A DNA stretch of 64,000 nucleotides from Bacillota bacterium. Its GTDB lineage: Bacteria; Bacillota; Clostridia; Acetivibrionales; DTU013. The DNA is taken from assembly GCA_023411715.1 (NCBI GenBank), contig JAEYOM010000004.1:20351-84350 (forward strand). Direction: 5' to 3'. Positions within the stretch are counted from its first letter, which is position 1, and every line of letters begins with the position of its first letter. Shown piece by piece: positions 2,969-63,230 of this stretch. Made by a program: the position numbers and the translations under genes. The notes under the pieces were generated by a model. The model saw only the letters and a program-made list of their open reading frames with translations, did no database searches and was not told the DNA's origin.

Positions 2969-4315
2969 ATGGACGGTATTCAGATTACAAAAGTCCAAGC
3001 CCGCAGATTCATGCTGAAATATCACGGGCTTTACGGCAAAAGGCTTCCCAGGGGCAAAAAAGGCATCCTCGAATACGTGCGAAGAGTCGGATGCATACAG
3101 TACGATCCTCTCAATATCGTGGGCCATAACCAGGAACTGGTGCTCCAGTCCAGGATAGACGGCTTCAAACCTGCCATGCTTCAGGAACTCCTATATAATG
3201 ACCGATTGCTGCTGGACGGCTGGGACAAGGTCATGTCGATCTATCTCACCTCAGACTGGCCGTACTTCAGCCGTTACAGGGCATCACAGCTCGAATGGCT
3301 CGGCAGTCCCGACAAGCCCGTTGTCCCCTACCTTCCGCTTATCAGAAACGAGCTTCGGCAGCGTGGCCCTCTTTCCTCCATCGACCTGGAATATGATCAG
3401 GCGGTACGGTGGCCGTGGGGACCTACGCGCGTTTCCAGAGCGGCATTGGAAAGCATGTGGTTCTGGGGTGAACTCATTATACATCACAAGGTCAATACGA
3501 GGAAATATTATGATTTTGCTTCCGGGTACCTGGCGGGAGATTTGCTGAGCACACCCGACCCGAATGAAACCTTTGAACAGTACAGAGACTGGCGCATATG
3601 CCGGAGGATAGGCGGTACGGGATTTTTATGGGACAGGCCCGGCGATGCCTGGCTGGAGATACCCGAAACAAAGACGCCCGAGCGCAGGGAAAGCATTCAA
3701 AGGCTTACGGCCGCCGACAAGCTTTCGGAGATAAACGTGGAAGGAATAAAGGCGCCGCTTTATATGAGGACCTGCGATATGCCGGTATTGGAAGAGATTC
3801 TGAGCGAACAGTCCGGTGCTCAGGCCTCTTCTGCGAAGCTTTCGGCATCTTCCGCGAAGCTTTCGGCATCTTCCGCGAAAGACGACGCGGCTTCTGATAC
3901 AGGCAGCTTCCGCAGTGCTTCGCGTACACCATCCCCGCGCGCCCATATCCTCGCCCCGCTCGACAACCTGCTGTGGGATCGCAGGCTTGTAAAGGAGATA
4001 TTTGATTTCGACTACCGGTGGGAGGTCTACAAACCACAGTCTGAACGCAATTACGGCTATTATGTCCTGCCGGTCCTGTACGGCGACCGGTTTATCGCCA
4101 GGTTTGAACCCGGGTTTGATAAAAAGTCCAAGGCGCTGATGATAAAAAATTGGTGGTGGGAAGCCGGCGTCAAGCCTACCAAACCGATGCAGCGCGGACT
4201 TGCAAAGTGTTTCAGGCTTTTTGCGGAATATCTCGGGACGGACAATATCGGGATGCCCCGGGACGGCTCAGGTAATACTGATGACAGTATAACCTGCTGG
4301 CTCGATGGAATATGA
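2969..4315 (+). CDS. YcaQ/AlkZ-like winged-helix protein (DUF1006-type putative crosslink-repair DNA glycosylase)
   Basis: MDGIQITKVQARRFMLKYHGLYG...GILEYVRRVGCIQYDPLNIVGHNQELVLQSR and a C-terminal YGYYVLPVLYGDRFIARFE motif typical of the family. Start chosen at ATG 2969. Confidence 0.6.
   Translation: MDGIQITKVQARRFMLKYHGLYGKRLPRGKKGILEYVRRVGCIQYDPLNIVGHNQELVLQSRIDGFKPAMLQELLYNDRLLLDGWDKVMSIYLTSDWPYFSRYRASQLEWLGSPDKPVVPYLPLIRNELRQRGPLSSIDLEYDQAVRWPWGPTRVSRAALESMWFWGELIIHHKVNTRKYYDFASGYLAGDLLSTPDPNETFEQYRDWRICRRIGGTGFLWDRPGDAWLEIPETKTPERRESIQRLTAADKLSEINVEGIKAPLYMRTCDMPVLEEILSEQSGAQASSAKLSASSAKLSASSAKDDAASDTGSFRSASRTPSPRAHILAPLDNLLWDRRLVKEIFDFDYRWEVYKPQSERNYGYYVLPVLYGDRFIARFEPGFDKKSKALMIKNWWWEAGVKPTKPMQRGLAKCFRLFAEYLGTDNIGMPRDGSGNTDDSITCWLDGI
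3827..3880. repeat. 21-nt in-frame tandem repeat (2.5 copies) inside the YcaQ-like gene
   Basis: tcttcYgcgaagctttcggca repeated, encoding SSAKLSASSAKLSASSAK. Confidence 0.9.
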
Positions 4316-4444: not shown

Positions 4445-6778
4445 TTAAGGAGTTATCGCCCTGCCGTATTCATCGCCGAACCCGCTCTGGACCGACTCCT
4501 TGCCAAAGTATTTCATAAGCTGCTTTAAATCGGGGTCCTTAACTTTATTATAATATAGACTGTACTGATCCTCCTTCTCCTCGCTGGTCTTGAAACGTTT
4601 TTGCAGCACAAGCAGTCCATTGTACATCAGCGCGAGGTCGTCCTCCCTGCCCTTAAGCAGCTTTGCCGCTTCATCAGGCTTTTCGGTGTTGATCAGATTG
4701 AAAAATTCACTATAGTCTGACGTATCCATTTCCAGGTATTTTTTGATCAGCGGTTTGTAATCCGCGTAGAATGACCCATTATACCTGTAATTTTCGGTAA
4801 GCTGGGGCAAAAGCTCCAGCCTGTTCTGCAGTATATAGAGTATAATCAGGTCTCCCGCGCCTCCGCCCGTCCTTTCGTAAAACCGCTCATAATATTCGGT
4901 GGCTTTTTCGAATTTGCCCATATAACCGTAGTTGCGGCCTATCTGAGGCAGATCATAAGGATTGCTGCTCTTCATAAGCAGTTCAAGGCCTTTCTGCAAT
5001 TCGCCCGAATCGATATAAAGCGATCCGAGCACCGAAAGCAGCTCTTCGTTATCGGGTATTTCACTGATCAACCTCTCAAAATAGCCTTTTGCTTTTTCGG
5101 CGTCCTTGTACTTTAACGAAGACGTTTTACTGTCATATTCCCAGCCATTGTAATAAAGCTTGGCCAATACCTTCAAAGCGTGCAGACTCCCGACTCCTTC
5201 GGCCAGATCTCTTTCATACAGGCTGATCGCCTTGTCGTATTTTTTATCCAGCAATGCAAGATCAGCCTCGTTGAATTCGTCGCCGGCGACAGGCAGTATT
5301 TCCCTATGCCTGCTGGGGTATATGCCGTCGCTGCCGTACATGGTGTTGCCGTTATGGTCGTAGAAGGTTACATAATAGGCGTAATCGCCCGTATGATAAA
5401 ACGGCTCGAAGAGATAATACGGGTCGATACCGTCTGTACCGAAGGAAGCGCCCGTATTCATGCCCCTTTTACGCTCACTGGCAGTATCAAGTATATATTC
5501 TCCGGTTTTTATACTTTCCGAATAAAACATATTGTTGGCCATTATCCGCATGTCTTCAATATCACGCAGTTCTCCCGCGTAAATCGTATAATGATCCGCG
5601 TCTTCCGGCATGTTTACGCTGAAACGGAATTTTCCGCCCCCGATATCCTGCACGCTGACCATCCCGACCGTATCAAGAAATGCTATATCCTTTTTGATTG
5701 CAGTATTTCCTGTGAACTTCAAATTGTTGTCCCCTCCCATGTCGAGAGCCTTTCCCTGGACACGCTGCCAGTCGGCGCCTATAGCGATCACATAAATACC
5801 GTCGGGGATGTTCGTAAACCTGAATTTACCTTCCCTGTCCGTTACTGCAGTGCAGCGCACTCCGTCGCCTTGGCCGAACGTACTGCTCCAACCATTTCTT
5901 GTGGCTTCGTCTTTAAGGAAAATCGTTATATAAGGCGCCGGGCTGCCCTCTATACTGACGCAGCCGCTCAAAACATTATTGTTTTTTTCAGCCGTTTCAA
6001 CACTTCTCAGGTATTTAAAGCCCGACAGTTCGCTATTTATCTGCAGCAAGGGCTTTACAAGCGTTTCGCTGGGCTTTTGCGAAGTAAAAAACAAATTGGG
6101 TATTGCCGCCATCTCTTTATCGAAGCTATCCTTATCTTCCTTCATGTAGCAATAATATGCGTATAACGCGTGCCTGACCGTGGAATAACGGTCCTGCACG
6201 TTGAGATGTTCCTGCAGCACAGCCGCTCCCCTGTCCATCTCTCCGAGCCCCATATACATCGCCGCGAGGTGAAGTTTCCTTAGCGATTCAAGCTTGCCGT
6301 CCCTTATATAGTCAAGCTGTTCAAGCAGCTTGATGGCTTTTTCCCCGTAACCCGAAAAATAATTGGCCAGGGCGACATATATCGTGTATTCCGCCAGCGC
6401 ATCACTTTTCATGGCATGTCCGGCGATATCCCTGTATTGCGCATTGATCCTGTCTGCGCTTTCGGCCCCGATGTAGGAGCAGTTGAACGCAGTGAAACTT
6501 TCGGTGAAAAATAGTTTACTGAAATAGCCGAAGTTTTTATTTTCTACAAGAAGCTCGAGTTTCCTTTGCGCAGCCGAAACAGCGGCATTTGAAGCCGGAG
6601 CGCCCTCTGCGGCCCTGTCGTAATAAACGTCTGCCGCCGCGCCGTTTCCGGCCAACTCGCTGATCCTTCCCAGTAAGTAAAACATACGTCCCTGAAAAAG
6701 CAATAGAGCCGCGATCAAAACGAGCGCAGGCAGAATGATCAAAAGCAGGTGCTTAACCTTAATTCTTATATATCCCAT
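4445..6778 (-). CDS. Membrane-anchored TPR-repeat protein with a central carboxypeptidase-regulatory-like (Ig-like) domain
   Basis: 777 aa. N-terminal TM segment (LLLIILPALVLIAALLLF). Sequence EGKFRFTNIPDGIYVIAIG is typical of CarboxypepD_reg folds. TPR-like helical repeats lie on both sides. Last gene of the sigma/anti-sigma operon. Confidence 0.6.
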   Translation of the reverse strand: MGYIRIKVKHLLLIILPALVLIAALLLFQGRMFYLLGRISELAGNGAAADVYYDRAAEGAPASNAAVSAAQRKLELLVENKNFGYFSKLFFTESFTAFNCSYIGAESADRINAQYRDIAGHAMKSDALAEYTIYVALANYFSGYGEKAIKLLEQLDYIRDGKLESLRKLHLAAMYMGLGEMDRGAAVLQEHLNVQDRYSTVRHALYAYYCYMKEDKDSFDKEMAAIPNLFFTSQKPSETLVKPLLQINSELSGFKYLRSVETAEKNNNVLSGCVSIEGSPAPYITIFLKDEATRNGWSSTFGQGDGVRCTAVTDREGKFRFTNIPDGIYVIAIGADWQRVQGKALDMGGDNNLKFTGNTAIKKDIAFLDTVGMVSVQDIGGGKFRFSVNMPEDADHYTIYAGELRDIEDMRIMANNMFYSESIKTGEYILDTASERKRGMNTGASFGTDGIDPYYLFEPFYHTGDYAYYVTFYDHNGNTMYGSDGIYPSRHREILPVAGDEFNEADLALLDKKYDKAISLYERDLAEGVGSLHALKVLAKLYYNGWEYDSKTSSLKYKDAEKAKGYFERLISEIPDNEELLSVLGSLYIDSGELQKGLELLMKSSNPYDLPQIGRNYGYMGKFEKATEYYERFYERTGGGAGDLIILYILQNRLELLPQLTENYRYNGSFYADYKPLIKKYLEMDTSDYSEFFNLINTEKPDEAAKLLKGREDDLALMYNGLLVLQKRFKTSEEKEDQYSLYYNKVKDPDLKQLMKYFGKESVQSGFGDEYGRAITP

Positions 6779-15309: not shown

Positions 15310-15315
15310 TATGGG

Positions 15316-15428
15316 GCGTACCGGCGGCAGGCTGTGTCGCGAGTGTGCCATACCGGCGGCAGGCTGTGTCGCGAGTGCGCCGTACCGGCGGCAGGCTGTG
15401 TCGCGAGTGCGCCGTACCGGCGGCTTTT
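15316..15428. repeat. 32-bp GC-rich tandem repeat, 3.3 copies, starting 7 nt after the dinB stop
   Basis: The core ccggcggcaggctgtgtcgcgagtgcgccgta recurs with starts at 15321, 15353, 15385 and 15417 (last copy partial), then ttttt. Confidence 0.95.
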
Positions 15429-19001: not shown

Positions 19002-19307
19002 TTACCTCCCCGGATTGTTTAGATTATTGTTGACAATGTTCACTATCTCGCTAATAAATTCGCCTATTACCGGCAAGTCCCATTTCATGATATACCGCAG
19101 GAGATAAATGATAAGCGCGGCCAGCAGCGTAAAGCCGATGGAAGCGCCGAATCCTCTCGCAAGTCCTGCCAAAAAATTTGAAAACAGCATTTTTCGCGGA
19201 TGTTCAAGGTATTCCACGTATTCCTTGATCTTTGTTTTCTCCATATTGAAAGAAATCCGGTCCAGTTTCTTGTTAAGTAGCCTGTACATGGTTTTGCTGT
19301 CGAACAC
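19002..19307 (-). CDS. Small membrane protein (DUF5665-like)
   Basis: 101 aa. HPRKMLFSNFLAGLARGFGASIGFTLLAALIIYLL hydrophobic core. 3-nt spacing to the YteA-like gene. Confidence 0.55.
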   Translation of the reverse strand: MFDSKTMYRLLNKKLDRISFNMEKTKIKEYVEYLEHPRKMLFSNFLAGLARGFGASIGFTLLAALIIYLLRYIMKWDLPVIGEFISEIVNIVNNNLNNPGR

Positions 19308-24104: not shown

Positions 24105-24385
24105 ACTAAAAAACCCCTCGATCCCAGATAAAGGGACGAGAGGATATGACTCACGCGTTACCACCCAAATTACCGCTGTAATTACAGTCTTCGACTGTTA
24201 TTCACGGCAGTCTCTTGATCATACCTTTAACGGAGTGACCCGGCTTATCGTACTTGCGCTTTCACGCTTTCAGCAAGCGGCTCCCGGAGGATTTTCAGGA
24301 AACTCTTCCGCAGCCTCGCACCGGCCGGCTGCTCTCTGTTGGATTAGCGATCCTTACTCGTTCCGATCATAGCAATAAAATATTA
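24105..24385 (-). promoter_or_regulatory. T-box riboswitch leader of ileS
   Basis: The minus strand carries AACAGAGAGCAGCC (stem I AGAGA element), the T-box sequence AAUUUGGGUGGUAACGCGUGA (24151-24170), and the terminator CCUCUCGUCCCUUUAUCUGGGAUCGAGGGGUUUUUU. I could not assign the specifier codon with confidence. Confidence 0.85.
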
Positions 24386-32214: not shown

Positions 32215-32356
32215 AGCAAACCCTCCTCTTTATTTTAATTCCGTCGGCGGAGCCCAGGCGCTTATAATGGGCTGCATTTCATATAACATCTCAGTAGTCG
32301 CAACGCCGATGAACTGGACCCCCGGAGCCCTTCTCCCTGGCAGTGCTCGTCACCAC

Positions 32357-32480
32357 GGATGCATGGGCGAGCAGCAGGCTTTGCCTGCGACCAGCCCGGA
32401 TGCATGGGCGAGCAGCAGGCTTTGCCTGCGACCAGCCCGGTTGTATGGGCGAGCTGCAGGCTACTTTATTCCTGTAGTCT
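32357..32480. repeat. REP-A hairpin element, 3 tandem copies (41-nt period)
   Basis: ggatgcatgggcgagcagcaggctttgcctgcgaccagccc at 32357 and 32398 (identical). A diverged third copy from 32439 overlaps the stop of the 32466 ORF. Confidence 0.95.
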
Positions 32481-41100: not shown

Positions 41101-41334
41101 ACCTGCTGCGCCGGTTGATTAATATTGCATGAGTTTCGTGACCTGGAGCATATTGATGAGGCATTGCCCAAGGAAAATATCTGTTTGAGCGAAGCATTCA
41201 CATCTATGCTTCGCATTTTGTTTCATCTGTAACTATTTGCGGAGCAAATAGTATTGTTAAATTTTCCAACAGAGCCGAATCTATATGCTCCGGGAACGTA
41301 AACTCCGCAATAGGAATCAACCGGCGCAGCAGGT
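41101..41334. repeat. 234-bp long-hairpin (MITE-like or invertible) element: ~52-bp imperfect terminal inverted repeats around a 129-nt core
   Basis: Left arm 41101-41153 (acctgctgcgccggttgatt aatattgcatgagtttcgtgacctggagcatat). Right arm 41283-41334 is its reverse complement, with the outer 20 nt perfect and about 85 percent identity overall. The core holds two perfect hairpins: gcgaagcat/atgcttcgc (41188-41213) and ctatttgc/gcaaatag (41233-41251). Confidence 0.9.
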
Positions 41335-41386
41335 TATGACTGAGTTCATCTAGTGAGAGTCAAACCGGCGCAAGCAGGTTATGACT
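41319..41386. repeat. 23/24-nt direct repeat duplicating the 3' end of dxs
   Basis: aaccggcgcagcaggttatgact (41319-41341) and aaccggcgcaagcaggttatgact (41363-41386). The second copy contains the dxs stop codon (41379-41381). Confidence 0.9.
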
Positions 41387-43265
41387 TATTTTTTATCAGT
41401 TTTATTATGCTGCGGCTTATCGACTCGGCATCGAGCCCGTATTTTTCAAAAATCCTGTTCCGTGGTCCGTGCGTTATCGGAGCGTCAGGGAAACCGAATA
41501 TACCTGTTTTTACCCTGTAACCGTTCCTGTTCAGAAGCTCCAGCACGGCGCTCCCAAAGCCGCCCGTTATACAGTTGTCCTCGAGCGTTGCGACCGCATG
41601 CGTTTTTGCGGCGCTTTCCAGTATCAGCCTTGCGTCGAGCGGCTTTACAAACCTGGCGTCGATCACGTCGGCATGTATGCTTTTTTCTGTGAGCAATTCC
41701 GATACGCGCAGCGCTGTTTCCACCATTTTTCCGACTGCCAGTATAGTGACGTCTTCGCCGTTTTGCAGCTTCAGGCCTTTTCCACACTGTATAGGGGATA
41801 TCGGCACCATTCGTACTTTTCCGGTGCCTCTGGGGTAACGTATCGCTATCGGTCCGTCATGCGCTGTAACCGCATAATCCAGCATGCGCTCAAACTCGAG
41901 ATAATCGCTGGGAGCGGCAATCGTCATATTGGGTATGTGTTCGAGATACGACAGATCGTAAATACCCTGGTGCGTCTCTCCGTCTTCACCTATCAGGCCT
42001 GCCCTGTCAATGGCAAAAACGACATGCAGATCCTGAAGCGCGACATCGTGTATTATCTGATCATACGAACGCTGAAGAAAAGTTGAATAAATTGCCACCA
42101 CAGGCTTGATACCCGCTTTTGCAAGACCGGCGGCAAACGTTACCGCATGCTGCTCCGCAATACCCACGTCAAAGAAACGTTCCGGATATTTTTTTGCAAA
42201 TTCCTCAAGTCCCGTACCAAGGGGCATTGCAGCAGTTATTGCGACGAGTCTGGGCTCGTTGGCCGCAAGATTGACCATTTTTTCGCCAAATATATCGGAA
42301 TAGGACGGCCCGTTATTGATCTTAACCTCGCCGGTCTCAATTTCAAACGGATTTATGCCGTGAAATTGCTGTGGCTTGTTTTCAGCAAACTTGTATCCCT
42401 TGCCCTTTTGGGTCAATACATGTATCAAAACGGGGCCTTTAAGTTTCTTAGCCCTTGAAAGCACATTTGTAAGTTCTTCTACGTCATGTCCGTCGATCGG
42501 CCCCAGATATTTCAGACCCAGTTCTTCGAATAACATTCCGGGAATCAGCATGTATTTTATAGATCCCTTTGCCCTGTTCAATGCGCGTGCGGCGCTGTCG
42601 CCTATGGCAGGCAGCCTCTTCAGCAGGGAATCAAAATCTTCCTTCGCTTTGGAATAGATCGGCTGTGTCCTTATTTTACTCAGGTAACGTGAAAAGCCGC
42701 CTACATTCTTGCTTATGGACATGCCGTTATCGTTAAGGATGATTATCATGTTGTTGCGTGAACGCCCTGCGTCATTGAGCGCTTCGAATGCCATACCGCC
42801 CGTCATCGCACCGTCGCCCATGACTGCGACTACGGAATAATTAACTCCCAGAATATCGCGCGCCTTGGCAAATCCGAGCGCGGCGGATATGGATGTGCTG
42901 CTGTGACCCGTATTGAAGCAGTCGCTATCGCTTTCACAGCTTTTCGGAAACCCGGAGAGGCCATCAATCTGACGAAGCGTGTCAAACCGGTCCCTTCGGC
43001 CTGTTATTATCTTATGCACGTAGGATTGGTGACCGACGTCCCATACTATCTTATCCCTCGGGGTGCTGAATACCCTGTGCAGCGCCAGGGTAAGCTCGAC
43101 TACGCCAAGATTTGACGCCAGATGCCCTCCCGTTTCGGAAACCTTTTCTATCAGGAACTGCCTGATCTCATCGGCAAGTATCTTCATTTGTACTAAATTC
43201 AGCTTTTTAATATCGTCCGAATTATTTATCCGATAAAGTATGCTTTCTTCACTTTTTTCTATCAT
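41379..43265 (-). CDS. dxs: 1-deoxy-D-xylulose-5-phosphate synthase
   Basis: 628 aa. GHSSTSISAALG, TPP motif GDGAMTGGMAFEALN, transketolase-like C-terminus. Confidence 0.95.
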   Translation of the reverse strand: MIEKSEESILYRINNSDDIKKLNLVQMKILADEIRQFLIEKVSETGGHLASNLGVVELTLALHRVFSTPRDKIVWDVGHQSYVHKIITGRRDRFDTLRQIDGLSGFPKSCESDSDCFNTGHSSTSISAALGFAKARDILGVNYSVVAVMGDGAMTGGMAFEALNDAGRSRNNMIIILNDNGMSISKNVGGFSRYLSKIRTQPIYSKAKEDFDSLLKRLPAIGDSAARALNRAKGSIKYMLIPGMLFEELGLKYLGPIDGHDVEELTNVLSRAKKLKGPVLIHVLTQKGKGYKFAENKPQQFHGINPFEIETGEVKINNGPSYSDIFGEKMVNLAANEPRLVAITAAMPLGTGLEEFAKKYPERFFDVGIAEQHAVTFAAGLAKAGIKPVVAIYSTFLQRSYDQIIHDVALQDLHVVFAIDRAGLIGEDGETHQGIYDLSYLEHIPNMTIAAPSDYLEFERMLDYAVTAHDGPIAIRYPRGTGKVRMVPISPIQCGKGLKLQNGEDVTILAVGKMVETALRVSELLTEKSIHADVIDARFVKPLDARLILESAAKTHAVATLEDNCITGGFGSAVLELLNRNGYRVKTGIFGFPDAPITHGPRNRIFEKYGLDAESISRSIIKLIKNKS

Positions 43266-43890
43266 TTTTAGTTTTCCTTTTTTTTGTGAAAAACAATATT
43301 TTGTCCAAAACGAAGCTGATTACCACACTCACCTTATATATTATGTAATTGCTATTGCGCAGCGCAATCGTTTTTCCGAGGGCCTTTCCACCAACTGTCA
43401 TCGCAGTTATCAATCCCGTTATCACAAGCTCCGCGATAGTAATCGTTTCCTGTTCGCCGATGATTCTTATAATAATGTAGGCGCCCGCAGCGCCGCTTAT
43501 AATGCCGCATATATCGCCAACGACGTCGTTGCATACATTTGATACCTTATCAGCATTCCTTATAAGCCTTATAGACTGTTTCGCACCGTAAAGCTTCCGG
43601 GATGCCATGGCATGGAACGGAGCCTCCTCAGCCGCCGTAACAGCCGTCCCTATGGTATCGAACATGATATTTATCAAAATTATAAATAATATTACCAAAA
43701 AAGCTGTAAGTATATCCGATTCTTTCAGAATATTGGATGATGCGATATTAAGTATTGCAGATATAAAAAAGGACGAAAAGGTAACAGCCAGTATCCAGAT
43801 TATATCATTCTTTTTAGCAGCACCCACAGCGGTTTTTTCTCTGAACTTTACTTTCTTTTCTTCGGCGGGATGCTTGAAATTATCGTCCAC
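43249..43890 (-). CDS. oapA: Small 4-TM membrane protein, proposed OLE-associated protein OapA
   Basis: Start chosen at GTG 43890, 9 nt after GGAGG (the track ORF begins at TTG 43914). Four hydrophobic segments. DVVGD (DxxxD) motif. 17-nt overlap with the dxs start. Sits directly downstream of the large RNA. Confidence 0.65.
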   Translation of the reverse strand: MDDNFKHPAEEKKVKFREKTAVGAAKKNDIIWILAVTFSSFFISAILNIASSNILKESDILTAFLVILFIILINIMFDTIGTAVTAAEEAPFHAMASRKLYGAKQSIRLIRNADKVSNVCNDVVGDICGIISGAAGAYIIIRIIGEQETITIAELVITGLITAMTVGGKALGKTIALRNSNYIIYKVSVVISFVLDKILFFTKKRKTKNDRKK

Positions 43891-43956
43891 CGACTTAAAC
43901 CTCCATATCAGCAATAAAGGACGTATCCTGAATCAGGATGCATCCCAGATGATTAA

Positions 43957-44593
43957 GTAAAAACCAGGTGGCAATATATTGAGTAAATTTTGCGGCTTAG
44001 GTCAGGCAGGATTTCCCCCGGAAATACCGATTTGTCGCCAAACCGGCGGTTTCCCTTTAAATTTCCGGCCGCAGCGTTACCGCTGTCGGGGCCTGATTAC
44101 CACTTAGTCCACACTGCAATCCCCAATATATTTCATTTGGAACAGCCTAGGGGTTTTCCCCGGCAGTCTGTCCGTTTCCTAGCCTCTTTTGCAAATAGGG
44201 TTTCAAATAGCGATAATGCGCTCATACCGGCCAGTAATCCTGCATCTGATCCATTATCCACCGTATTCACTCAAGGCAGGCTACGCTGTCCACAGCATCA
44301 AATGATACCGCATAACAGGTTCAATCCCTGATCGTAGTTGATACCAAGCTTCAAAATCCCTTTTTGAATATTCAAAGCCTCTTTCTTCCACAAGTCAGGG
44401 TCTCCACGGTAAAGGGGTCAACGCCTGCATGCCATTGCAGATCGCCCCTGAACCTTAACTCCCAGCACCAGCCCACCACTGGGCGTAGCAAGCCGACACA
44501 AGGAACTTCATCGATATGCCCTTTAACGGATTTTTAGGCCCGTCCTGAGAAACGTCAGTACTGACTAGAATACTGCGCCACCTTGTTTTTTGA
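43957..44593 (-). ncRNA. ole: Large structured ncRNA, proposed OLE (ornate, large, extremophilic) RNA
   Basis: About 640 nt with no credible ORF inside a packed operon. Own promoter. 5' AAGGUGGC pairs with 3' GCCACCUGG, followed by a U-run. A GNRA-capped helix (ACAGCG-GUAA-CGCUGC) exists only on the minus strand. The context ispA-RNA-oapA-dxs-tlyA is diagnostic. No covariance-model search was possible here. Confidence 0.7.
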
Positions 44594-44599
44594 ATTCTT

Positions 44600-44630
44600 A
44601 TTATAGCATATTTCTTGTGACCAATAAAGA
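44600..44630 (-). promoter_or_regulatory. Extended -10 promoter for the large ncRNA
   Basis: Minus strand TTTATT-17 nt-(TGC)TATAAT. TGCTATAAT corresponds to 44600-44608. Confidence 0.5.
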
Positions 44631-44750
44631 ATAACTATCATTCCTTTTAAGTTTCAATGCTGCCGAAACGATAAGTTACGACTCGTTATCGACCATATGC
44701 TTATTTATAATGCATTTACATTGTCCGCGCGCATTATTTGAACTCATTCA

Positions 44751-45641
44751 TCAATGATCGCGGTCCCTTACGAATCCAGCCAGATCCCTGAGAAAACCTG
44801 CTTTATCGTCGAAACTCTCCAAAGCGCCGAGCGCGGTATCTATTGTTTTATCAAGCATAGCCCGGGCATTTTCGAGACCATATAGCGTGACGTATGTAGA
44901 TTTGCCCGATCCAGCGTCGCTTCCGGCCGCTTTGCCCATCTTTCCGGGATCGCCTTTCACATCCATGATATCGTCCTTGATCTGGAAAGCGAGCCCAATA
45001 TTCTCCGCATAGCTGCCAAGCTTTTCGATATCTTTTTCAGAAGCGCCGCACAAAACAGCGCTTGCTATTACCGGAGCTTTTATAAGCGCGCCGGTCTTGC
45101 ACCTATGCATGAATTCCAATGTAACTGTTTCGATCTTCTTTCCTTCCGATTCCATGTCGACGACCTGTCCGCGAATCATGCCGTCCGCGCCTGCCGCCCC
45201 GGCAACGATTTGCATCGCTCTCAGCCTGGCGTCCATATTCCTGCCGTCTGAAATCGACGCTGCAAGCATCAGTTCATATGCGCTGTTCAGGAGCGCATCC
45301 CCCGCTAATATGGCCATTGCTTCTCCAAATACCTTGTGATTCGTCGGTACGCCTCTTCTGTAGTCGTCGTTGTCCATTGCGGGAAGATCGTCATGTATCA
45401 GGGAATAAGTATGTATCATCTCGATCGCGCACGCATACGGAAGTATTTCGTTCTTATTGCCGTCCAGCATTTCGCATACGGCAAGCGCCAGGACCGGCCT
45501 CAGCCTTTTTCCGCCGGCCATCAGGCTGTATTTCATCGCATTGTAAATGTTCGAGCCGGGGCCTTCCTTGATCGAAAGATAATCGTCAAGAGCATTGTTT
45601 ACAAGCTGTGTCCATTTGTCCAACCGAGCGTTGAAGTCCAT
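44751..45641 (-). CDS. ispA: Farnesyl-diphosphate synthase (polyprenyl synthetase)
   Basis: First Asp-rich motif LIHDDLPAMDNDDYRRG and second motif FQIKDDIMD. Confidence 0.95.
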   Translation of the reverse strand: MDFNARLDKWTQLVNNALDDYLSIKEGPGSNIYNAMKYSLMAGGKRLRPVLALAVCEMLDGNKNEILPYACAIEMIHTYSLIHDDLPAMDNDDYRRGVPTNHKVFGEAMAILAGDALLNSAYELMLAASISDGRNMDARLRAMQIVAGAAGADGMIRGQVVDMESEGKKIETVTLEFMHRCKTGALIKAPVIASAVLCGASEKDIEKLGSYAENIGLAFQIKDDIMDVKGDPGKMGKAAGSDAGSGKSTYVTLYGLENARAMLDKTIDTALGALESFDDKAGFLRDLAGFVRDRDH

Positions 45642-45648
45642 AAATCCA

Positions 45649-45882
45649 TCACTGTCCTAAAGCGGGCATCTCCTTTTCCAATATTCCGTTTTCGCCTTCT
45701 ATCAGTATAGTAATACTGCGCTCCGCCTCATCAAGCTTTTTGTTGCAGAACTTCGTAAGTTCGACACCCCTCTGGAAACAGTTTATCGAATCCTCGAGGG
45801 TAAGCTCGCCTTTTTCAAGCTTTTTAACTATCTCTTCGAGCTCCGCTATAGCCTGTTCGAAACTTGCACCTTTTTCACTCAT
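45649..45882 (-). CDS. xseB: Exodeoxyribonuclease VII small subunit
   Basis: Start moved to MSEKGASFEQAIAELEEIVKKLEKGELTLEDSINCFQRGVEL (45882). Confidence 0.9.
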   Translation of the reverse strand: MSEKGASFEQAIAELEEIVKKLEKGELTLEDSINCFQRGVELTKFCNKKLDEAERSITILIEGENGILEKEMPALGQ

Positions 45883-45924
45883 ATTTTTATCCCCCTCCGG
45901 GTTTCCCAGCATATCTTCAATTTT

Positions 45925-46060
45925 TAGGCATCGTTAACATATGACTTCCGCTGATCTTTTCCGGAAAACTTCACTAACCAGGCTGCATGGGCGAGTAGCA
46001 TGCGCAGTATGCGACCAGCCCGCTCCATTTTCCGTTAAAGAAGCGGAAGTAATATTTTAG
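45925..46060. repeat. REP-B hairpin element, copy 1, carrying a nested REP-A insertion (45980-46021)
   Basis: taggcatcgttaa...acttccgct...cggaaaa cttcactaacc [42-nt insert] gctccattttccg...agcggaagtaatatttta. Collinear with copy 2 (60416-60510) except for the insert. Confidence 0.9.
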
Positions 46061-47346
46061 TCGAGTCTTATTTGCACGCCTGGCCCCTTATCGATATCTC
46101 CCGGATCGCCCACTCCGCCTGAATCTCTGCCATACGGCTTTTCGCTTATTTCCTCTATTCGGCAGCTCAGAGTGCCATCCGTGACATAAACCCTGAGGCT
46201 GTCGCCGATATTTACGGAATGAATGGATTTCACCAGAGTATCGTCTTTTTCGGCACGTATTATACCATAGCCCCTTGCCAGTGAATTCAGAGGGCTCAGG
46301 GAATCCAACCTTGCCGCCAGCAGCGAGAGCCTGTTCCTGTACTGTATGCTCAATACTGAGAGCGCCTTATGCAGGTAACGTTTCTGAACGTCGAGCAGCA
46401 TGCGCTCCTGGTATATCTTGTTGTAGGGCTGTCTGAACGCGACGCTTTCTCCAAGCCTCTTCAAAGTGAGCCTTTCCATTGAGGTCTTTTTAACAATTGC
46501 ATTACGCAGGCGCATTTTAAGGCTATCCAGCCTGTTCTCGACCACTGATCTTTCCGGCATAACCAGTTCTGCCGCGGCCGAAGGGGTTGATGCCCTGACA
46601 TCGGCCACAAAATCGGATATTGTGAAATCCGTTTCATGCCCGACAGCCGAAATCACCGGTATGCGGGATTGATATATGCTCCTTGCGACAACTTCCTCGT
46701 TGAAGGCCCAGAGCTCCTCAAGTGATCCTCCGCCCCTCGCAACGATGATGACGTCGACATTGTCAAGTTCGTTGAGCCGGCGCACCGCCCCGGCTATCTG
46801 CCCCGAGGCCGCCTCACCCTGCACCTGTACGGGATATACCTTTATATTTACATTGTAGAATCTTCTGCTGAGGATGTTGATTATATCGCGTACAACGGCG
46901 CCCGTTGAAGATGTGACAACTCCGATCGAACCCGGCAAATAAGGGAGCTTCCTTTTTCTCGCTTCATCAAAAAGCCCTTCTGCCGAAAGTTTTTGCTTAA
47001 GCTTCTCGAAAGCTACATATAGCGCGCCGACACCGTCAGGCTGTATCTCTTCAGCATATAGCTGATATTGCCCATCGCGTTCAAATACGGAAATATACCC
47101 GCGTACCAGTACTTTCATTCCGTCCTCGGGTTCGAACACTACAGAGGCCGCATGCGATCGGAACATTACGCATTTTAGAACGGATTTTTCATCTTTGATG
47201 GTAAAATAGAAATGACCTGAATAGTGGCTTTTAAAATTGGATATCTCACCCTTCACCCAGATGCCTGAGAGTATGATATCCCTTGAAATCAGGTCTTTGA
47301 TATATTTATTCAACTCCGAGACCGTCAAAACGTTATTTGTTGGCAT
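46057..47346 (-). CDS. xseA: Exodeoxyribonuclease VII large subunit
   Basis: 429 aa. OB-fold N-terminus (VSELNKYIKDLISRD...WVKGEISNFKSHYSGHFYFTIKDE) and GRGGGS-like ARGGGSLEELWAFN. Confidence 0.95.
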   Translation of the reverse strand: MPTNNVLTVSELNKYIKDLISRDIILSGIWVKGEISNFKSHYSGHFYFTIKDEKSVLKCVMFRSHAASVVFEPEDGMKVLVRGYISVFERDGQYQLYAEEIQPDGVGALYVAFEKLKQKLSAEGLFDEARKRKLPYLPGSIGVVTSSTGAVVRDIINILSRRFYNVNIKVYPVQVQGEAASGQIAGAVRRLNELDNVDVIIVARGGGSLEELWAFNEEVVARSIYQSRIPVISAVGHETDFTISDFVADVRASTPSAAAELVMPERSVVENRLDSLKMRLRNAIVKKTSMERLTLKRLGESVAFRQPYNKIYQERMLLDVQKRYLHKALSVLSIQYRNRLSLLAARLDSLSPLNSLARGYGIIRAEKDDTLVKSIHSVNIGDSLRVYVTDGTLSCRIEEISEKPYGRDSGGVGDPGDIDKGPGVQIRLD

Positions 47347-47351
47347 AATGT

Positions 47352-47780
47352 TCAGATGCCGCCTGACTGCTCGCCGGCAGGAGCATTTTTATCGGATATG
47401 TTGCTGAGTATCCCGTTTACAAACGAGCCCGCATCCTCACTACTGTACTTCTTGGCAAGTTCAACCGCTTCGTTTACAGAGACGCTGTAAGGAATGTCTT
47501 CCCTGAAGGCAATTTCATATATGCTGAGCCTCATTATCGACAGGTCGATCCTTGATATCCTGCTTATCTTCCAGCCCTTGGAATGGGCTTCTATCATGTT
47601 GTTTATATAATCAAAATGGCTGTATACGCCATCGACCACATCGTTTATGTAAGTCCTGTCCTTTTCGGAGATCGTATTTTCCTCGAAGAACAAATTCTTC
47701 TGAGATTCCCTGTCGTCTTTCTGGAATTCCATCTGGTACAGGAGCTTCATCGCCAATTCCCTGGAGACTCTTCGTCCCAT
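47352..47780 (-). CDS. nusB: Transcription antitermination factor NusB
   Basis: MGRRVSRELAMKLLYQMEF...VNEAVELAKKYSSEDAGSFVNGIL. Confidence 0.95.
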   Translation of the reverse strand: MGRRVSRELAMKLLYQMEFQKDDRESQKNLFFEENTISEKDRTYINDVVDGVYSHFDYINNMIEAHSKGWKISRISRIDLSIMRLSIYEIAFREDIPYSVSVNEAVELAKKYSSEDAGSFVNGILSNISDKNAPAGEQSGGI

Positions 47781-47808
47781 GTGTTATCCTCCCGATTCTT
47801 ACCTTCCG

Positions 47809-48048
47809 CTACCTGTATGTGCCCGGCGGCAATACCCTGTCAAGAAGGTTCTTTATATAGTCCTTGTCGTCATGTATTCTTTTCCCAATATAATAACCTA
47901 CCCCGGTCAATAATGCAATAAAAAGGACTCTCCAAAATCCGAGTATCAGTATTAAAACAGCGGTCAAAAAGCCGATCGCCGCTCCATTGATCGCGCCACG
48001 GTTTGAATTGTAGAATTCCAGGATTTTTTCAAGGCTCATTATTGACAC
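47809..48048 (-). CDS. Small membrane protein (DUF2273-like) of the asp23 cluster
   Basis: 79 aa, two TM helices. Sits downstream of the amaP-like gene. Confidence 0.6.
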   Translation of the reverse strand: MSIMSLEKILEFYNSNRGAINGAAIGFLTAVLILILGFWRVLFIALLTGVGYYIGKRIHDDKDYIKNLLDRVLPPGTYR

Positions 48049-48051
48049 CTC

Positions 48052-48612
48052 CTATTCGACTCTTGCTTTAAATGTGACGCCTGTGTATATACTGTCCACG
48101 ATCACTTTTACGTTCTTGACCTCTATCCCGGAAGCTTCCTCTACAGATTTTTTGACCCTGTTCTGTACCTCTTCCGAAATCACCGGGATACTGAGATCGG
48201 GCATTACTACTATCCGGACCTCTATTTCCACGCCGTCGTCGGCTTTCCTGACGAGCGTCTTCGATTCCCTGACCCCGTTGGATCTCTTTGAGGCGTTGAT
48301 CGCGACATTTTCAATAGAGTTCAGCGATATCCTGATTTCCCCGATATTAGTTTGTTTACTTACAGCTTTTTTATCCTTGTTGCTTCTGACGCCTGAAAGC
48401 AGGAACATTATGCTCATTGCGAAGAAGATCAATCCGATTGTGAATATGATAACTCTCAGTGTTGTCCCGATATCTGACGAGATAGCACTTGTTACCAGGC
48501 CCGTAATGTCGTCGAACGCCTTTGGGACAAACGCTATGTACATCACGAACACGGACAGCACCGCAAGACAAAAAGCATACACAGCCAGCAAAACTCTAAA
48601 AAAGATATTCAT
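48052..48612 (-). CDS. amaP: Alkaline-shock-response membrane anchor protein (AmaP-like)
   Basis: 186 aa. Two N-terminal TM helices and a C-terminal Asp23-like beta region. Adjacent to asp23. Confidence 0.6.
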   Translation of the reverse strand: MNIFFRVLLAVYAFCLAVLSVFVMYIAFVPKAFDDITGLVTSAISSDIGTTLRVIIFTIGLIFFAMSIMFLLSGVRSNKDKKAVSKQTNIGEIRISLNSIENVAINASKRSNGVRESKTLVRKADDGVEIEVRIVVMPDLSIPVISEEVQNRVKKSVEEASGIEVKNVKVIVDSIYTGVTFKARVE

Positions 48613-48692
48613 GCCATACCACCTCTCCGGTCACCATTTTCCTTGGTTTATCCTACGCTTTTTGATGGATATCTTAATTATATTGTATTTAC

Positions 48693-48721
48693 CAAAAAAA
48701 ATAAACCCTTCCGGGTTTATT
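48693..48721 (-). terminator. Strong intrinsic terminator after asp23
   Basis: Minus strand AUAAACCC-GGAA-GGGUUUAU followed by UUUUUUUU. Confidence 0.8.
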
Positions 48722-48734
48722 AATAAATACGTAT

Positions 48735-49139
48735 TTACTTAATTTTTGTCTGTTCCTCAGGCAGTTCCTTCTTATGATCTCTTTCAATATTGACGCCCTG
48801 TATATGTATATTGACCTCTACTACGTTAAGGCCGGTCATTTCTTCGACAGCATGCTTCACTTTTTCCTGGATGCTCCACGCAACATCAGGTATGCGGTAG
48901 CCGTAATCCACTATAATGTAGAGGTCTATCGCCGCTTCCTTTTCTCCGACTTCAACCTTGACGCCTTTGGAAAGGTTTTTTCTGCCAAGTGCTTCAGCTA
49001 TCCCGCCTGCAATTCCGCCGCTCATGCCTGTGACTCCGGGGACCTCCATCGCCGCAATGCCAGCTATGATTGCAACAACCTCGTCGGTTATTTTTATGGC
49101 GCCTATCTCATTGACCACACTTTGAACGTCTTCTTCCAT
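48735..49139 (-). CDS. Asp23/Gls24-family envelope stress protein
   Basis: Start chosen at MEEDVQS (49139, GGAGG 5 nt upstream). KITDEVVAIIAGIAAMEVPGVTGMSG is family-typical. Confidence 0.85.
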   Translation of the reverse strand: MEEDVQSVVNEIGAIKITDEVVAIIAGIAAMEVPGVTGMSGGIAGGIAEALGRKNLSKGVKVEVGEKEAAIDLYIIVDYGYRIPDVAWSIQEKVKHAVEEMTGLNVVEVNIHIQGVNIERDHKKELPEEQTKIK

Positions 49140-49204
49140 GGCTACCTCCATTGGTACATCTTGCAATACAATCATTATAGCACTTCCTCCGCGTCAAGTA
49201 AATG

Positions 49205-49792
49205 TCAGAACAGCGTCTTTATATGAATATCTCCGACATCTACGTCGCCCTGCCTCGTAACGATATCGGTGATCTGGGCGGTCTGTGAAGAAGTCAGGCT
49301 CGGGGTCTTGATAACGATATCAACGCTGCCGTTGTCGGCGAACAGGACGAATGTTTCGTCAAACCCCATCTTGTTGATCAGAGCCTCGATCCTCATTTCC
49401 TTATCAGAGTTCTCAGTCAGCGTGATGATTTTAGCCTGTGCTTCCGCTTTCATCTCATCACTGGAATTGATATCGTCCGCTATAGCCTTGAGAGATTCGC
49501 TGTTTTCGCTTCTGCTCTGTTCCTTATCCATTTTGGCCTGCACAAAGTAATCATTAGCCATTTTTGAAGCGGTTACATTAAGCTGGGTATTCTCATTTTC
49601 AGCTACATCCTGTCCTGTTCCATCCAGACCTTCGTTGGCGATCTCATTATCTACATAAACCGCCTCACCCAGAGTACCGTCGGTATTGGTCGATGTGCTT
49701 CCCTGTCTGTAGCTGTACTGCAGGTAGCCAGCTACCACTATCATGAGAACCAATGCTAAAATGACTATCTGCTTCCTTTTAAAAACCATCAT
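49205..49792 (-). CDS. spoIIIAH: Stage III sporulation protein AH
   Basis: Start moved to MMVFKRKQIVILALVLMIVVAGYL (49792). C-terminal YscJ/FliF-like region EMRIEALINKMGFDETFVLF. Last gene of the spoIIIA operon. Confidence 0.85.
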   Translation of the reverse strand: MMVFKRKQIVILALVLMIVVAGYLQYSYRQGSTSTNTDGTLGEAVYVDNEIANEGLDGTGQDVAENENTQLNVTASKMANDYFVQAKMDKEQSRSENSESLKAIADDINSSDEMKAEAQAKIITLTENSDKEMRIEALINKMGFDETFVLFADNGSVDIVIKTPSLTSSQTAQITDIVTRQGDVDVGDIHIKTLF

Positions 49793-60378: not shown

Positions 60379-60415
60379 ATGATTTCCCCCTTAAATAATT
60401 TATTTGCTCTATGCT

Positions 60416-60510
60416 TAGGCATCGTTAAAAAATAACATCCGCTAATCATTTACGGGGAACTACACTAACCGCTCCATTCCCCGTATAAGAAGCGGAAGTA
60501 ATTTTTTAGC
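60416..60510. repeat. REP-B hairpin element, copy 2 (no insert)
   Basis: taggcatcgttaa...acatccgct...tacgggga actacactaaccgctccat tccccgta...agcggaagtaatttttta. Hairpin with T-runs on both strands. Confidence 0.9.
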
Positions 60511-60542
60511 CGAGCCTTAACAGAAATTGTGACTCCGCCGGT

Positions 60543-62854: not shown

Positions 62855-63034
62855 TGCCTCCCGGTTTATATAAATTATTAGCTTTTCATTTATGTACAGA
62901 TGATATCGCGCTTTCTGTTATAACGCATCAGTTCACAGAAAATTTTTCGGCAACAGATTTCGCCAAGGCGAAATGTTTCATTAAAGTAGTATTTCTGCAA
63001 AGCAGAAATCCATTGTAGAAAAATTTTCTTACTC

Positions 63035-63075
63035 AGGATGCATGGGCGAGCAGATGACATAATCATCGACCAGCC
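63035..63075. repeat. REP-A hairpin element, solitary copy
   Basis: aggatgcatgggcgagcag-atgacataatcat-cgaccagcc. The flanks are conserved and the central stem is fully substituted with compensating bases. Confidence 0.85.
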
Positions 63076-63230
63076 TCTGCTGCGTTTCAACGTCGCTACC
63101 TCGTTATAATAACAAAAATATACCCGGCAGGCAACGGGCGAATTTGCTTTAAAGTATGGATTTTTTATAAAAAAAGTTGCATAATTAAAAAAAACATTTA
63201 TAAGGGTAATACGTTAGGAGGTTGCCGATA

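Follow-up and report, generated by a model that had tools for sequence, protein, structure and literature searches.

Probable successive insertion of two unrelated small mobile repeats, a MITE and a 42-nt REP-like element in its hairpin loop, at the xseA-xseB junction of a Clostridia genome

In a stretch of 64,000 nucleotides from a Clostridia bacterium (Bacillota, DTU013; contig JAEYOM010000004.1 of assembly GCA_023411715.1), hereafter called the window, a short repeat that we name REP-A lies inside the hairpin loop of a longer repeat, REP-B, between the exonuclease VII genes xseA and xseB. An earlier note on this DNA had pointed out the nesting. The probable explanation is that these are two unrelated elements that arrived one after the other, REP-B, a transposable element of the miniature inverted-repeat kind (MITE), being the first, and REP-A, a separately mobile element resembling REP (repetitive extragenic palindromic) sequences, having entered its loop later. 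The features of the nested site and the second REP-B copy of the window are as follows.

45649-45882, minus strand: xseB, exonuclease VII small subunit, start MSEKG...
45924-45926, plus strand: TTA (TAA on the gene strand), first copy of the 3-bp target-site duplication of REP-B
45927-45979, plus strand: left arm of REP-B copy 1, GGCATCGTTAA...CACTAACC; repeat D5; long hairpin, z -3.4 to -5.2
45980-46021, plus strand: REP-A unit, 42 nt, in the apical loop of REP-B; AGGC + TGCATGGGCGAGTAG + hairpin CATGCG-CAG-TATG(CG) + CGACCAGCCC
46022-46067, plus strand: right arm of REP-B copy 1, GCTCCATT...TTTTAGTCGAGTC; repeat D7; contains the present xseA stop codon (46057-46059, minus strand)
46068-46070, plus strand: TTA, second copy of the target-site duplication of REP-B
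46057-47346, minus strand: xseA, exonuclease VII large subunit; REP-B supplies its last codons (..IRLD and stop)
60418-60516, plus strand: REP-B copy 2 with an empty loop, junction 60470/60471; TTA at 60415-60417 and 60517-60519; fold z -7.1

The hairpin of REP-B copy 1 spans 45927-46067 and the insert lies at the exact point where copy 2 reads cactaacc/gctccatt (a slash marks the junction). Copy 1 reads ...cttcactaacc/AGGCTGCATGGGCGAGTAGCATGCGCAGTATGCGACCAGCCC/gctccattttcc... and copy 2 reads ...ctacactaacc/gctccattcccc...; the plus strand from 45925 to 46070 is ttaggcatcgttaa...cttcactaacc/aggctgcatgggcgagtagcatgcgcagtatgcgaccagccc/gctccattttccgttaaagaagcggaagtaat...gtcgagtctta, and at 60415-60519 REP-B runs uninterrupted through cactaacc/gctccatt. 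The repeat finder aligned the two halves of REP-B independently, as D5 (45917-45979 and 60408-60470, 79% identity over 63 nt) and D7 (46020-46070 and 60469-60519, 86% identity over 51 nt), and the spacing offset between the copies is 42 nt. The 42-mer as such is found a single time in the window, against 0 occurrences expected by chance; the repeat finder grouped it in family D1 with 32351-32473 and 63030-63070, and the covariance model of REP-A scored it at 62.9 bits (E 3.5e-12). The boundary of the insert slides by 2 nt because the left flank and the insert alike end in 'cc'. Each REP-B copy of the window folds as a single long hairpin with the junction in the apical loop. That a 42-nt REP-A unit splits the loop of REP-B precisely, as the earlier note had claimed, was thus borne out by the sequence, the repeat alignment and the covariance model, and its names for the flanking genes, xseA and xseB, were correct as well. 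Copy 2 lies between genes for a prepilin peptidase and ComFB, and all four flanking genes of both copies are on the minus strand. The note had also taken the filled and the empty copy in the window as direct evidence of mobility; copy 2 is a paralogous site and as such less strong evidence than the note had supposed, but a sister genome does have a true orthologous empty site.

This sister metagenome-assembled genome (MAG), L011, has a region orthologous to window 41309-49329, with 87.6% identity over 8 kb. REP-B is present in its xseA-xseB spacer with an intact loop, in which exactly 42 nt, the REP-A unit, are missing and the junction is otherwise unchanged. Four other relatives, L136, L138, L140 and L142, whose XseA proteins are 93, 91, 88 and 81% identical, have no REP-B at the junction, and in 4/4 of them xseA directly adjoins xseB or shares up to 8 nt with it. 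Comparing this spacer among relatives, as had been proposed in the earlier note, thus gave one site that is empty by exactly 42 nt and four that are bare. A single TAA stands at the insertion point in L136, L138 and L140, where the bare genomes align as ...GTGCAG(G/A) TAA AAATAGAAGA..., whereas in L011 and the window REP-B is enclosed by two, as ...GTGCA(G/A)A TAA GGCTCGG...CGATGC(T/C) TAA AAAT..., and the remaining REP-B copies are likewise flanked by TTA. REP-B has imperfect terminal inverted repeats, GGCATCGTTAAAA.../...TTTTAGCCGAGCC, a length of 99-103 bp, a fold into one hairpin with z down to -7.1, and no coding capacity. From the duplicated TAA around REP-B and the single TAA in the bare relatives it follows that REP-B is a MITE with a 3-bp target-site duplication. 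As the more distant relatives are without REP-B, it was REP-B that arrived first and REP-A only afterwards, and the series from a bare site to REP-B and then to REP-B with REP-A fixes the order of events. The arrival of REP-B was not without consequence for the genes, since it exchanged the last ~14 codons of xseA for ..IRLD and a stop and ended the overlap between xseA and xseB; in the relatives free of REP-B, xseA reads ~14 codons further, into xseB. In the window a longer XseB open reading frame (ORF) of 87 aa (45649-45912) starts within the relic of the former 3' end of xseA. For copy 2, a syntenic spacer without REP-B was found in L005 but it is too diverged to align, and no clean empty site was obtained there.

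When the right arm of REP-B was searched against one genome per species, 12 loci were found, seven of them in MAG OH_HBrB_109 (JAEXNT01) and the others in four further Clostridia MAGs. The 14 REP-B copies counted comprise 7 that are full-length and empty, 1 that is internally deleted, and 6 filled entries that represent 4 loci. The seven full-length empty copies, which come from five MAGs, all keep the loop CTAACC/GCTCC, and therefore the founder of the family was empty. A genome-wide alignment of REP-B copies had been another check proposed in the earlier note; the comparison here covered these 14 copies. The filled copies fall into three sub-lineages of the REP-B backbone, each adjoining empty copies: identity is 98% between the filled L004 and the empty L012, 91-94% between the filled L009 and L010 and the empty window copy 2, and 91% between the filled window copy 1 and the empty orthologous copy in L011. 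The REP-A units in different REP-B loops carry different hairpins. Three sub-lineages and differing inserted hairpins together mean that REP-A has entered the same position of the REP-B loop at least three separate times, and L015, with about two rearranged units in its loop, may be a fourth event. An internally deleted mini REP-B of ~60 nt that keeps both ends was seen in L007 at ~6350-6410 and in the argR-recN spacer of L136 and L137 (~19190-19250, plus strand); that of L136 has no counterpart in the window, where the argR-recN spacer is just 33 nt.

The ends of REP-A could be fixed from pairs of sites that differ by whole units. In the window and L011 the difference is the 42-nt unit after AACC; in L082 and L124 it is exactly one 44-nt unit after GCACCC; and in the YyaL genes of L149, L148 and L127 there are 0, 1 and 2 units after GTTC. 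In all three comparisons the last 2-3 bases of the insert match the end of the left flank. A 2-bp target duplication would fit these three pairs; it was ruled out, as 0/28 informative units repeat the left dinucleotide, the informative units being the 28 unique ones whose left dinucleotide is other than CC, and 28/28 of these end in CC. Thus, REP-A has fixed ends (NGGN...CGACCAGCC(C)) and makes no target duplication. It prefers, without requiring, a target ending in CC on the 5' side of the unit, (A)CC(C), the GTTC at the YyaL site being an exception. The 3' end of REP-A, ...AGCC(C), resembles its own target, so that insertion behind a resident copy would give head-to-tail arrays.

Within these ends a unit reads NGGN, TGCATGGGCGAGCAG, a covarying stem of 4-7 bp with mostly a GNA triloop, and CGACCAGCC(C), and its length of 40-44 nt is set by the length of the hairpin. 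The covariance model found 4 REP-A units in the window at E <= 6e-6, and overall there are 5 units at 3 loci in the 64 kb, two of these loci being free of REP-B; a search with the model in the window and the close relatives gave no further degenerate copies. The units outside REP-B are these.

32356-32437, plus strand: two head-to-tail REP-A units with a period of 41; D1; hairpin CAGGC-TTT-GCCTG
32438-32480, plus strand: third, degenerate REP-A unit; GGTTGTATGGGCGAGCTG and a different hairpin, 3' module missing
63035-63076, plus strand: solitary REP-A unit in a divergent intergenic region; hairpin GATGA-CATAA-TCATC; 57.8 bits

A scan of metagenomes with the pattern TGCATGGGCGAGYAG-N11-15-CGACCAG showed that REP-A extends far beyond these genomes. 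The matches listed come from >120 contigs and hold at least 139 REP-A units, of which 128 are unique, with 88 different hairpins, and none of the 139 units has REP-B beside it. Conservation extends to bases that the search pattern did not fix: A stands at -8 in 52% of the units, C at -7 in 65%, at -6 in 85% and at -5 in 84%, and GG at -3/-2 and CC at +1/+2 in >94% each. Within the stem, 95% of the cells are paired, 5/5 variable pairs change on both sides, 0/500 shuffles score as high as the observed alignment, and sliding the partners by one column makes the signal collapse. The hairpin of REP-A is thus kept by structure and not by sequence. Most loops have three bases and, on the TGCATGG strand, a closing C-G pair, the commonest being GAA (22), GTA (10), AAA (8), ATA (6) and GCA (5). 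The C-GNA-G triloop forms an unusually stable DNA mini-hairpin. The units are either solitary or in head-to-tail arrays with a period of 41-44 (window 32356-32437; L106, L114, L119, L122 and L126), and an inverted pair was seen only once, in L022. The host contigs have a GC content of 28-66% with a median of 42%, and the REP-A unit itself is 64-70% GC; the four contigs of highest GC (65-70%) were left out of this range because they are soil coding matches without the hairpin. These four (L051, L093, L111 and L113) match the pattern in conserved coding sequence, lack the CCC/GG/CC flanks as well, and are chance or unrelated matches outside the REP-A family.

REP-A is a widespread family for which we found no description in Rfam or in the literature searched. 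In Rfam the window gave no hit at the gathering score besides OLE and T-box, and at either REP-B locus nothing meaningful was obtained at E <= 10. In the literature searched the core of REP-A was found in neither orientation, and the work retrieved by keyword was general work on REP, MITE, BOX and Rickettsia palindromic elements (RPE). In plasmid and phage collections REP-A matches occurred at chance level only, and the scan of IMG/VR gave just 4 viral contigs with the REP-A pattern, from which it follows that carriage by phages is rare. In some contigs from fermentation metagenomes (L019, L022, L026, L067, L069, L072, L080, L107 and L134) REP-A is part of a recurring composite, ...gaaattgc-atg-gcaatttcaacacaccc, then REP-A, then ccatttcaacgaggcggg..., with some partial or inverted fragments, which suggests mosaics like the bacterial interspersed mosaic elements (BIMEs).

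About one third of the units lie in long open frames, many of which are probably spurious. Several of the frames that bear REP-A are, however, real genes through which the unit is read in frame, and REP-A adds 14-residue peptides to such proteins. A YyaL-type thioredoxin-domain protein has 27 extra residues at position 350/350 of PDB 7tkv, where there is no counterpart, and a MetRS has about 10 extra residues compared with 1rqg. The YyaL orthologues, which are 82-88% identical, read GTDA/ERFMVLF with 0 units, GTDA/EPDADCLNCPPMHPD/RFMVLF with 1 unit and GTDA/GLVADGVNCSPMHPGLVADCVNCSPMHPE/RFMVLF with 2 units. As read from the sequence, the conserved modules of REP-A are free of stop codons in all six frames.

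The earlier note had further suggested that REP-A targets hairpin loops. For REP-B this holds, as the same loop position was entered in three sub-lineages; as a general rule it does not, since many copies lie in coding sequence and hairpin apexes are no commoner at REP-A sites than at random junctions. When empty sites were made in silico, a hairpin apex (>= 10 cross pairs) was found at 26% of them and at 33% of random junctions (p = 0.19), and general loop targeting was therefore rejected. Clear apex cases are only a subset, namely REP-B, L061/L101, L099, L088 and L121. In L061 (~236) and L101 (~926) REP-A sits at the apex of a long palindromic element that is unrelated to REP-B, and the two hairpins, GGACGC-GTA-GCGTCC and GGATGC-AAA-GCATCC, differ by compensatory changes; L101 has a further hairpin module beside it. 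A third small repeat of ~64 nt with two short hairpins, 'REP-C', was also noticed at window 62951-63014, L009 1168-1231 and L010 7903-7966. The window copy lies 20 nt upstream of the solitary REP-A unit at 63035-63076, and in L009 and L010 REP-C lies in the right arm of REP-B with REP-A also present, so that three families are nested in one hairpin.

These data can be put together as follows. REP-B, an element of ~100 bp, inserted in the 3' end of xseA, duplicated TAA and separated xseA from xseB, and later, in the lineage of the window, REP-A probably entered the single-stranded tip of the REP-B hairpin directly after AACC. The observations show REP-A to be a discrete unit that has fixed ends and a preferred 5' flank, leaves no duplication, keeps the shape of its hairpin, and has been gained or lost repeatedly between closely related genomes. 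A plausible mechanism would be movement of REP-A in single-stranded form, brought about by an HUH/Y1 enzyme that acts in trans and is of the IS200/IS605-RAYT type (RAYT, REP-associated tyrosine transposase); it would recognize the hairpin together with the conserved flanking bases. The core GGGC would pair with (A/G)CCC at both cleavage points and might act as a guide. The loop of REP-B may have been hit repeatedly because AACC is exposed there in a single-stranded loop.

A number of observations weigh against this account and its mechanism. At the xse junction the distribution of REP-B is incongruent with the phylogeny of the flanks: REP-B is absent from the nearest relative of both the window and L011, the flanks (compared over window 41309-49329) being ~91-92% identical between the window and L136 and likewise between L011 and L138, and ~88% identical between the window and L011, and yet the REP-B copies of the window and L011 share derived bases. 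Two gains at the same site, two precise losses, or a short patch of recombination could each explain this conflict, and the order of REP-B first and REP-A second is unaffected by it. The choice between insertion and precise excision of REP-A at the xse locus depends on just two taxa. That the 15-nt core does not vary across metagenomes is in part a product of the search, whose pattern was exact, and the outer helix GGGC/GCCC is paired but invariant and hence gives no support by covariation. With regard to the enzyme, clustering of the neighbors of the loci showed no transposase family enriched beside REP-A, the clusters being large housekeeping families only (histidine kinases, ABC transporter parts and response regulators). 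The earlier note had proposed a search for a Y1 HUH/RAYT-like transposase; with an IS200 TnpA probe, phmmer found no IS200-like Y1 protein in the window and ~0.8 Mb of loci, a probe that may miss RAYTs, and the enzyme is thus conjectural. REP-A has one hairpin, and IS200/IS605 elements have one at each end. At 3/3 window loci (plus strand GC skew -0.105) the leading-strand template is the strand on which the target stands 5' of REP-A, and in the metagenome loci this strand is antisense to co-directional neighbor genes by 16:5, both of which are the opposite of the lagging-template prediction for an IS608-like element, in a small sample with a proxy for the direction of replication. Strand-specific folding was looked for in the stem mismatches and was rejected, there being 9 G-T and 11 A-C and no asymmetry.

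Of the other explanations, the least unlikely would make REP-A an optional internal module of a BOX-like composite, and slippage, unequal recombination or gene conversion among copies of REP-B would alter the number of units, 0, 1 or 2. The pneumococcal BOX element has this same layout, boxB being absent or repeated between boxA and boxC (PMC3049150). The L015 loop with its rearranged units and the tandem arrays of REP-A elsewhere would also fit, as would the fact that in the loci of the relatives REP-A was found only in REP-B loops. We consider it unlikely, because REP-B is absent from the surroundings of at least 139 units in at least 120 metagenome contigs and from two of the window's three loci, clean filled and empty pairs exist outside REP-B, and different REP-B copies hold different hairpins; moreover, conversion copies only units that are already in some loop and a first entry would still be required.

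Alternatively, the filled state could be ancestral at xse, and a precise deletion or excision could have removed the 42 nt from the sister genome and from the lineage of copy 2. With two taxa that have REP-B at the site, one gain and one loss are equally parsimonious, and the shared 'cc' could act as a microhomology. HUH-type elements, such as IS608, excise seamlessly, which also counts in favor of this possibility. The earlier note had itself named an ancestral REP-B holding the 42 nt as the finding that would overturn its view, and this was not supported, as most REP-B copies, including the seven full-length ones in five MAGs, are empty. That a 2-nt microhomology should delete exactly one family-defined unit in several lineages is unlikely, and precise excision would still be mobility of the same discrete unit. 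This makes ancestral filling quite improbable. It is less probable still that the hairpin of REP-B, with or without REP-A, is a functional structured RNA for processing or attenuation inside operons and that the 42 nt are a variable extension of its apical stem. Both REP-B copies of the window do lie in co-directional operons, in the same orientation and 35-50 nt upstream of the next start codon, the fold is stable (z down to -7.1), and the stems differ between copies and yet remain paired. However, there is no Rfam match at E <= 10, the element is missing from the same operon junction in four relatives, a target-site duplication is present, and REP-A occurs in coding sequences of unrelated genes in both orientations. 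A regulatory side-effect on xseB is possible. Finally, an assembly or chimera artefact might come to mind for a scaffold from a metagenome, repeats being notorious for mis-assembly. It has next to no probability, because three assemblies made by two pipelines, an ENA scaffold and a Logan contig among them, agree exactly in the filled sequence, and the genome with the empty state is distinct at the species level and not from the same sample.

Returning to the successive insertion of REP-B and REP-A, RAYT group 1 genes have been reported in Clostridia (PMC5581495), so that a candidate class of enzyme is available. It is conceivable, and we put it forward only tentatively, that REP-A is the substrate of a conserved single-strand DNA transposase, RAYT-like and domesticated or new, that is common to many Clostridia and active now, and that this enzyme cuts at (A/G)CC(C) with GGGC as a guide and pastes units of 40-44 nt into single-stranded DNA that is exposed, MITE loops and coding sequence among it. 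If this were true, the natural series of 0, 1 and 2 units would make transposition of the REP type reconstitutable with short oligonucleotides. To our knowledge, such transposition has been inferred and never directly observed.

The xse junction is a clean natural record in which the same site is seen bare, with a MITE, and then with the MITE and a 42-nt rider, and it makes visible a concrete cost of the MITE, namely the removed C-terminus of XseA and the broken overlap of xseA and xseB. As far as we know, the movement of REP-like repeats is poorly understood, and filled and empty pairs of this kind fix the ends of REP-A, the absence of a duplication and the preferred landing sequence. REP-A is widespread in metagenomes of anaerobes and GC-rich in AT-rich genomes. 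Its spread, its contrast in GC and the peptides it adds to proteins make it matter for gene annotation, where it can cause spurious ORF extensions and insertions, for the assembly of metagenomes, and for strain-level markers. The feature as a whole is one of ordinary small selfish repeats in an unusually informative configuration.

Other features of the window are an OLE RNA at 43952-44597 (minus strand, 532 bits, full length), ~1.3 kb downstream of the xseB-ispA genes, and a T-box leader at 24129-24379 (minus strand), these two being the only Rfam hits. A 48-nt tandem pair, 92% identical, at 35485-35580 matches L012 6449-6502 (MAG OH_HBrB_109) at 89-93% and is probably a fourth shared repeat family. 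Tandem repeats with periods of 87, 21 and 32 nt at 2538-2711 (D4), 3820-3899 (D2) and 15312-15424 (D3), respectively, are probably intragenic and unrelated to REP-A and REP-B.

Among known systems, REP-A comes closest in several ways to the REP sequences, BIMEs and REPINs (REP doublets) of Proteobacteria with their RAYTs (TnpA-REP, Y1 HUH). Both are GC-rich imperfect palindromes of ~35-45 nt (40-44 nt in REP-A) with conserved bases beside the stem, single or clustered, without a protein or a known duplication, and presumed to be moved in trans. REP-A is probably also dispersed in many copies per genome, with 5 units at 3 loci in 64 kb and >120 contigs among the matches listed. Unlike REPs, which form inverted doublets, REP-A clusters head-to-tail and its single units come and go independently; REPs are species-specific whereas the REP-A core recurs in contigs of 28-66% GC, and a sizeable minority of REP-A copies is intragenic, some in frame. 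A GTAG motif is absent from REP-A, and a search for a flanking RAYT gene in the window and ~0.8 Mb of loci gave none. With IS200/IS605 elements and their protein-less derivatives (palindrome-associated transposable elements, PATEs) REP-A shares the absence of a duplication, fixed ends and a hairpin kept by its shape, and its insertion 3' of a short preferred sequence (C at -6/-5 in ~85%, A at -8 in 52%, with exceptions such as GTTC) may be a further likeness. Those elements, however, are >100 nt with a hairpin at each end, while REP-A is ~42 nt with one hairpin, its strand at the window loci runs counter to the lagging-template rule of IS608, and no TnpA was found. Because its clusters are not the inverted doublets of REPINs, no flanking RAYT was found in the sequence covered, and the second hairpin and the expected strand are wanting, REP-A should not be called a member of the REPINs and RAYTs or of IS200/IS605.

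REP-B with REP-A also recalls pneumococcal BOX (boxA-boxB(n)-boxC), a long two-arm hairpin with 0, 1 or more modules of ~45 nt at its tip. There is, however, no similarity in sequence; REP-A is autonomous, is overwhelmingly found without REP-B rather than confined between its arms, and is far more widely spread, and REP-B has a demonstrated TAA duplication. Nesting of small repeats is known in Firmicutes from the mutual insertions of BOX, RUP and SPRITE. The RPEs of Rickettsia are palindromic selfish repeats that are in frame in genes and translated (PMC10969869), and they resemble REP-A in this in-frame insertion; they are ~100-150 bp and limited to Rickettsia, whereas REP-A is 40-44 bp, mostly intergenic and in contigs of the Clostridia type. 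REP-B, for its part, agrees with MITEs that duplicate TA or TNA, such as Correia, ERIC and RUP, in its size of ~100 bp, terminal inverted repeats, lack of coding capacity, hairpin over the whole length, and short A/T-rich duplication, here seen against an empty site, and like them it lies inside operons and is present or absent between close genomes. It differs from them in being a new sequence family with a conserved apical loop as a landing site for REP-A, and REP-A itself we place, as a new family, among the REP-like small mobile repeats.

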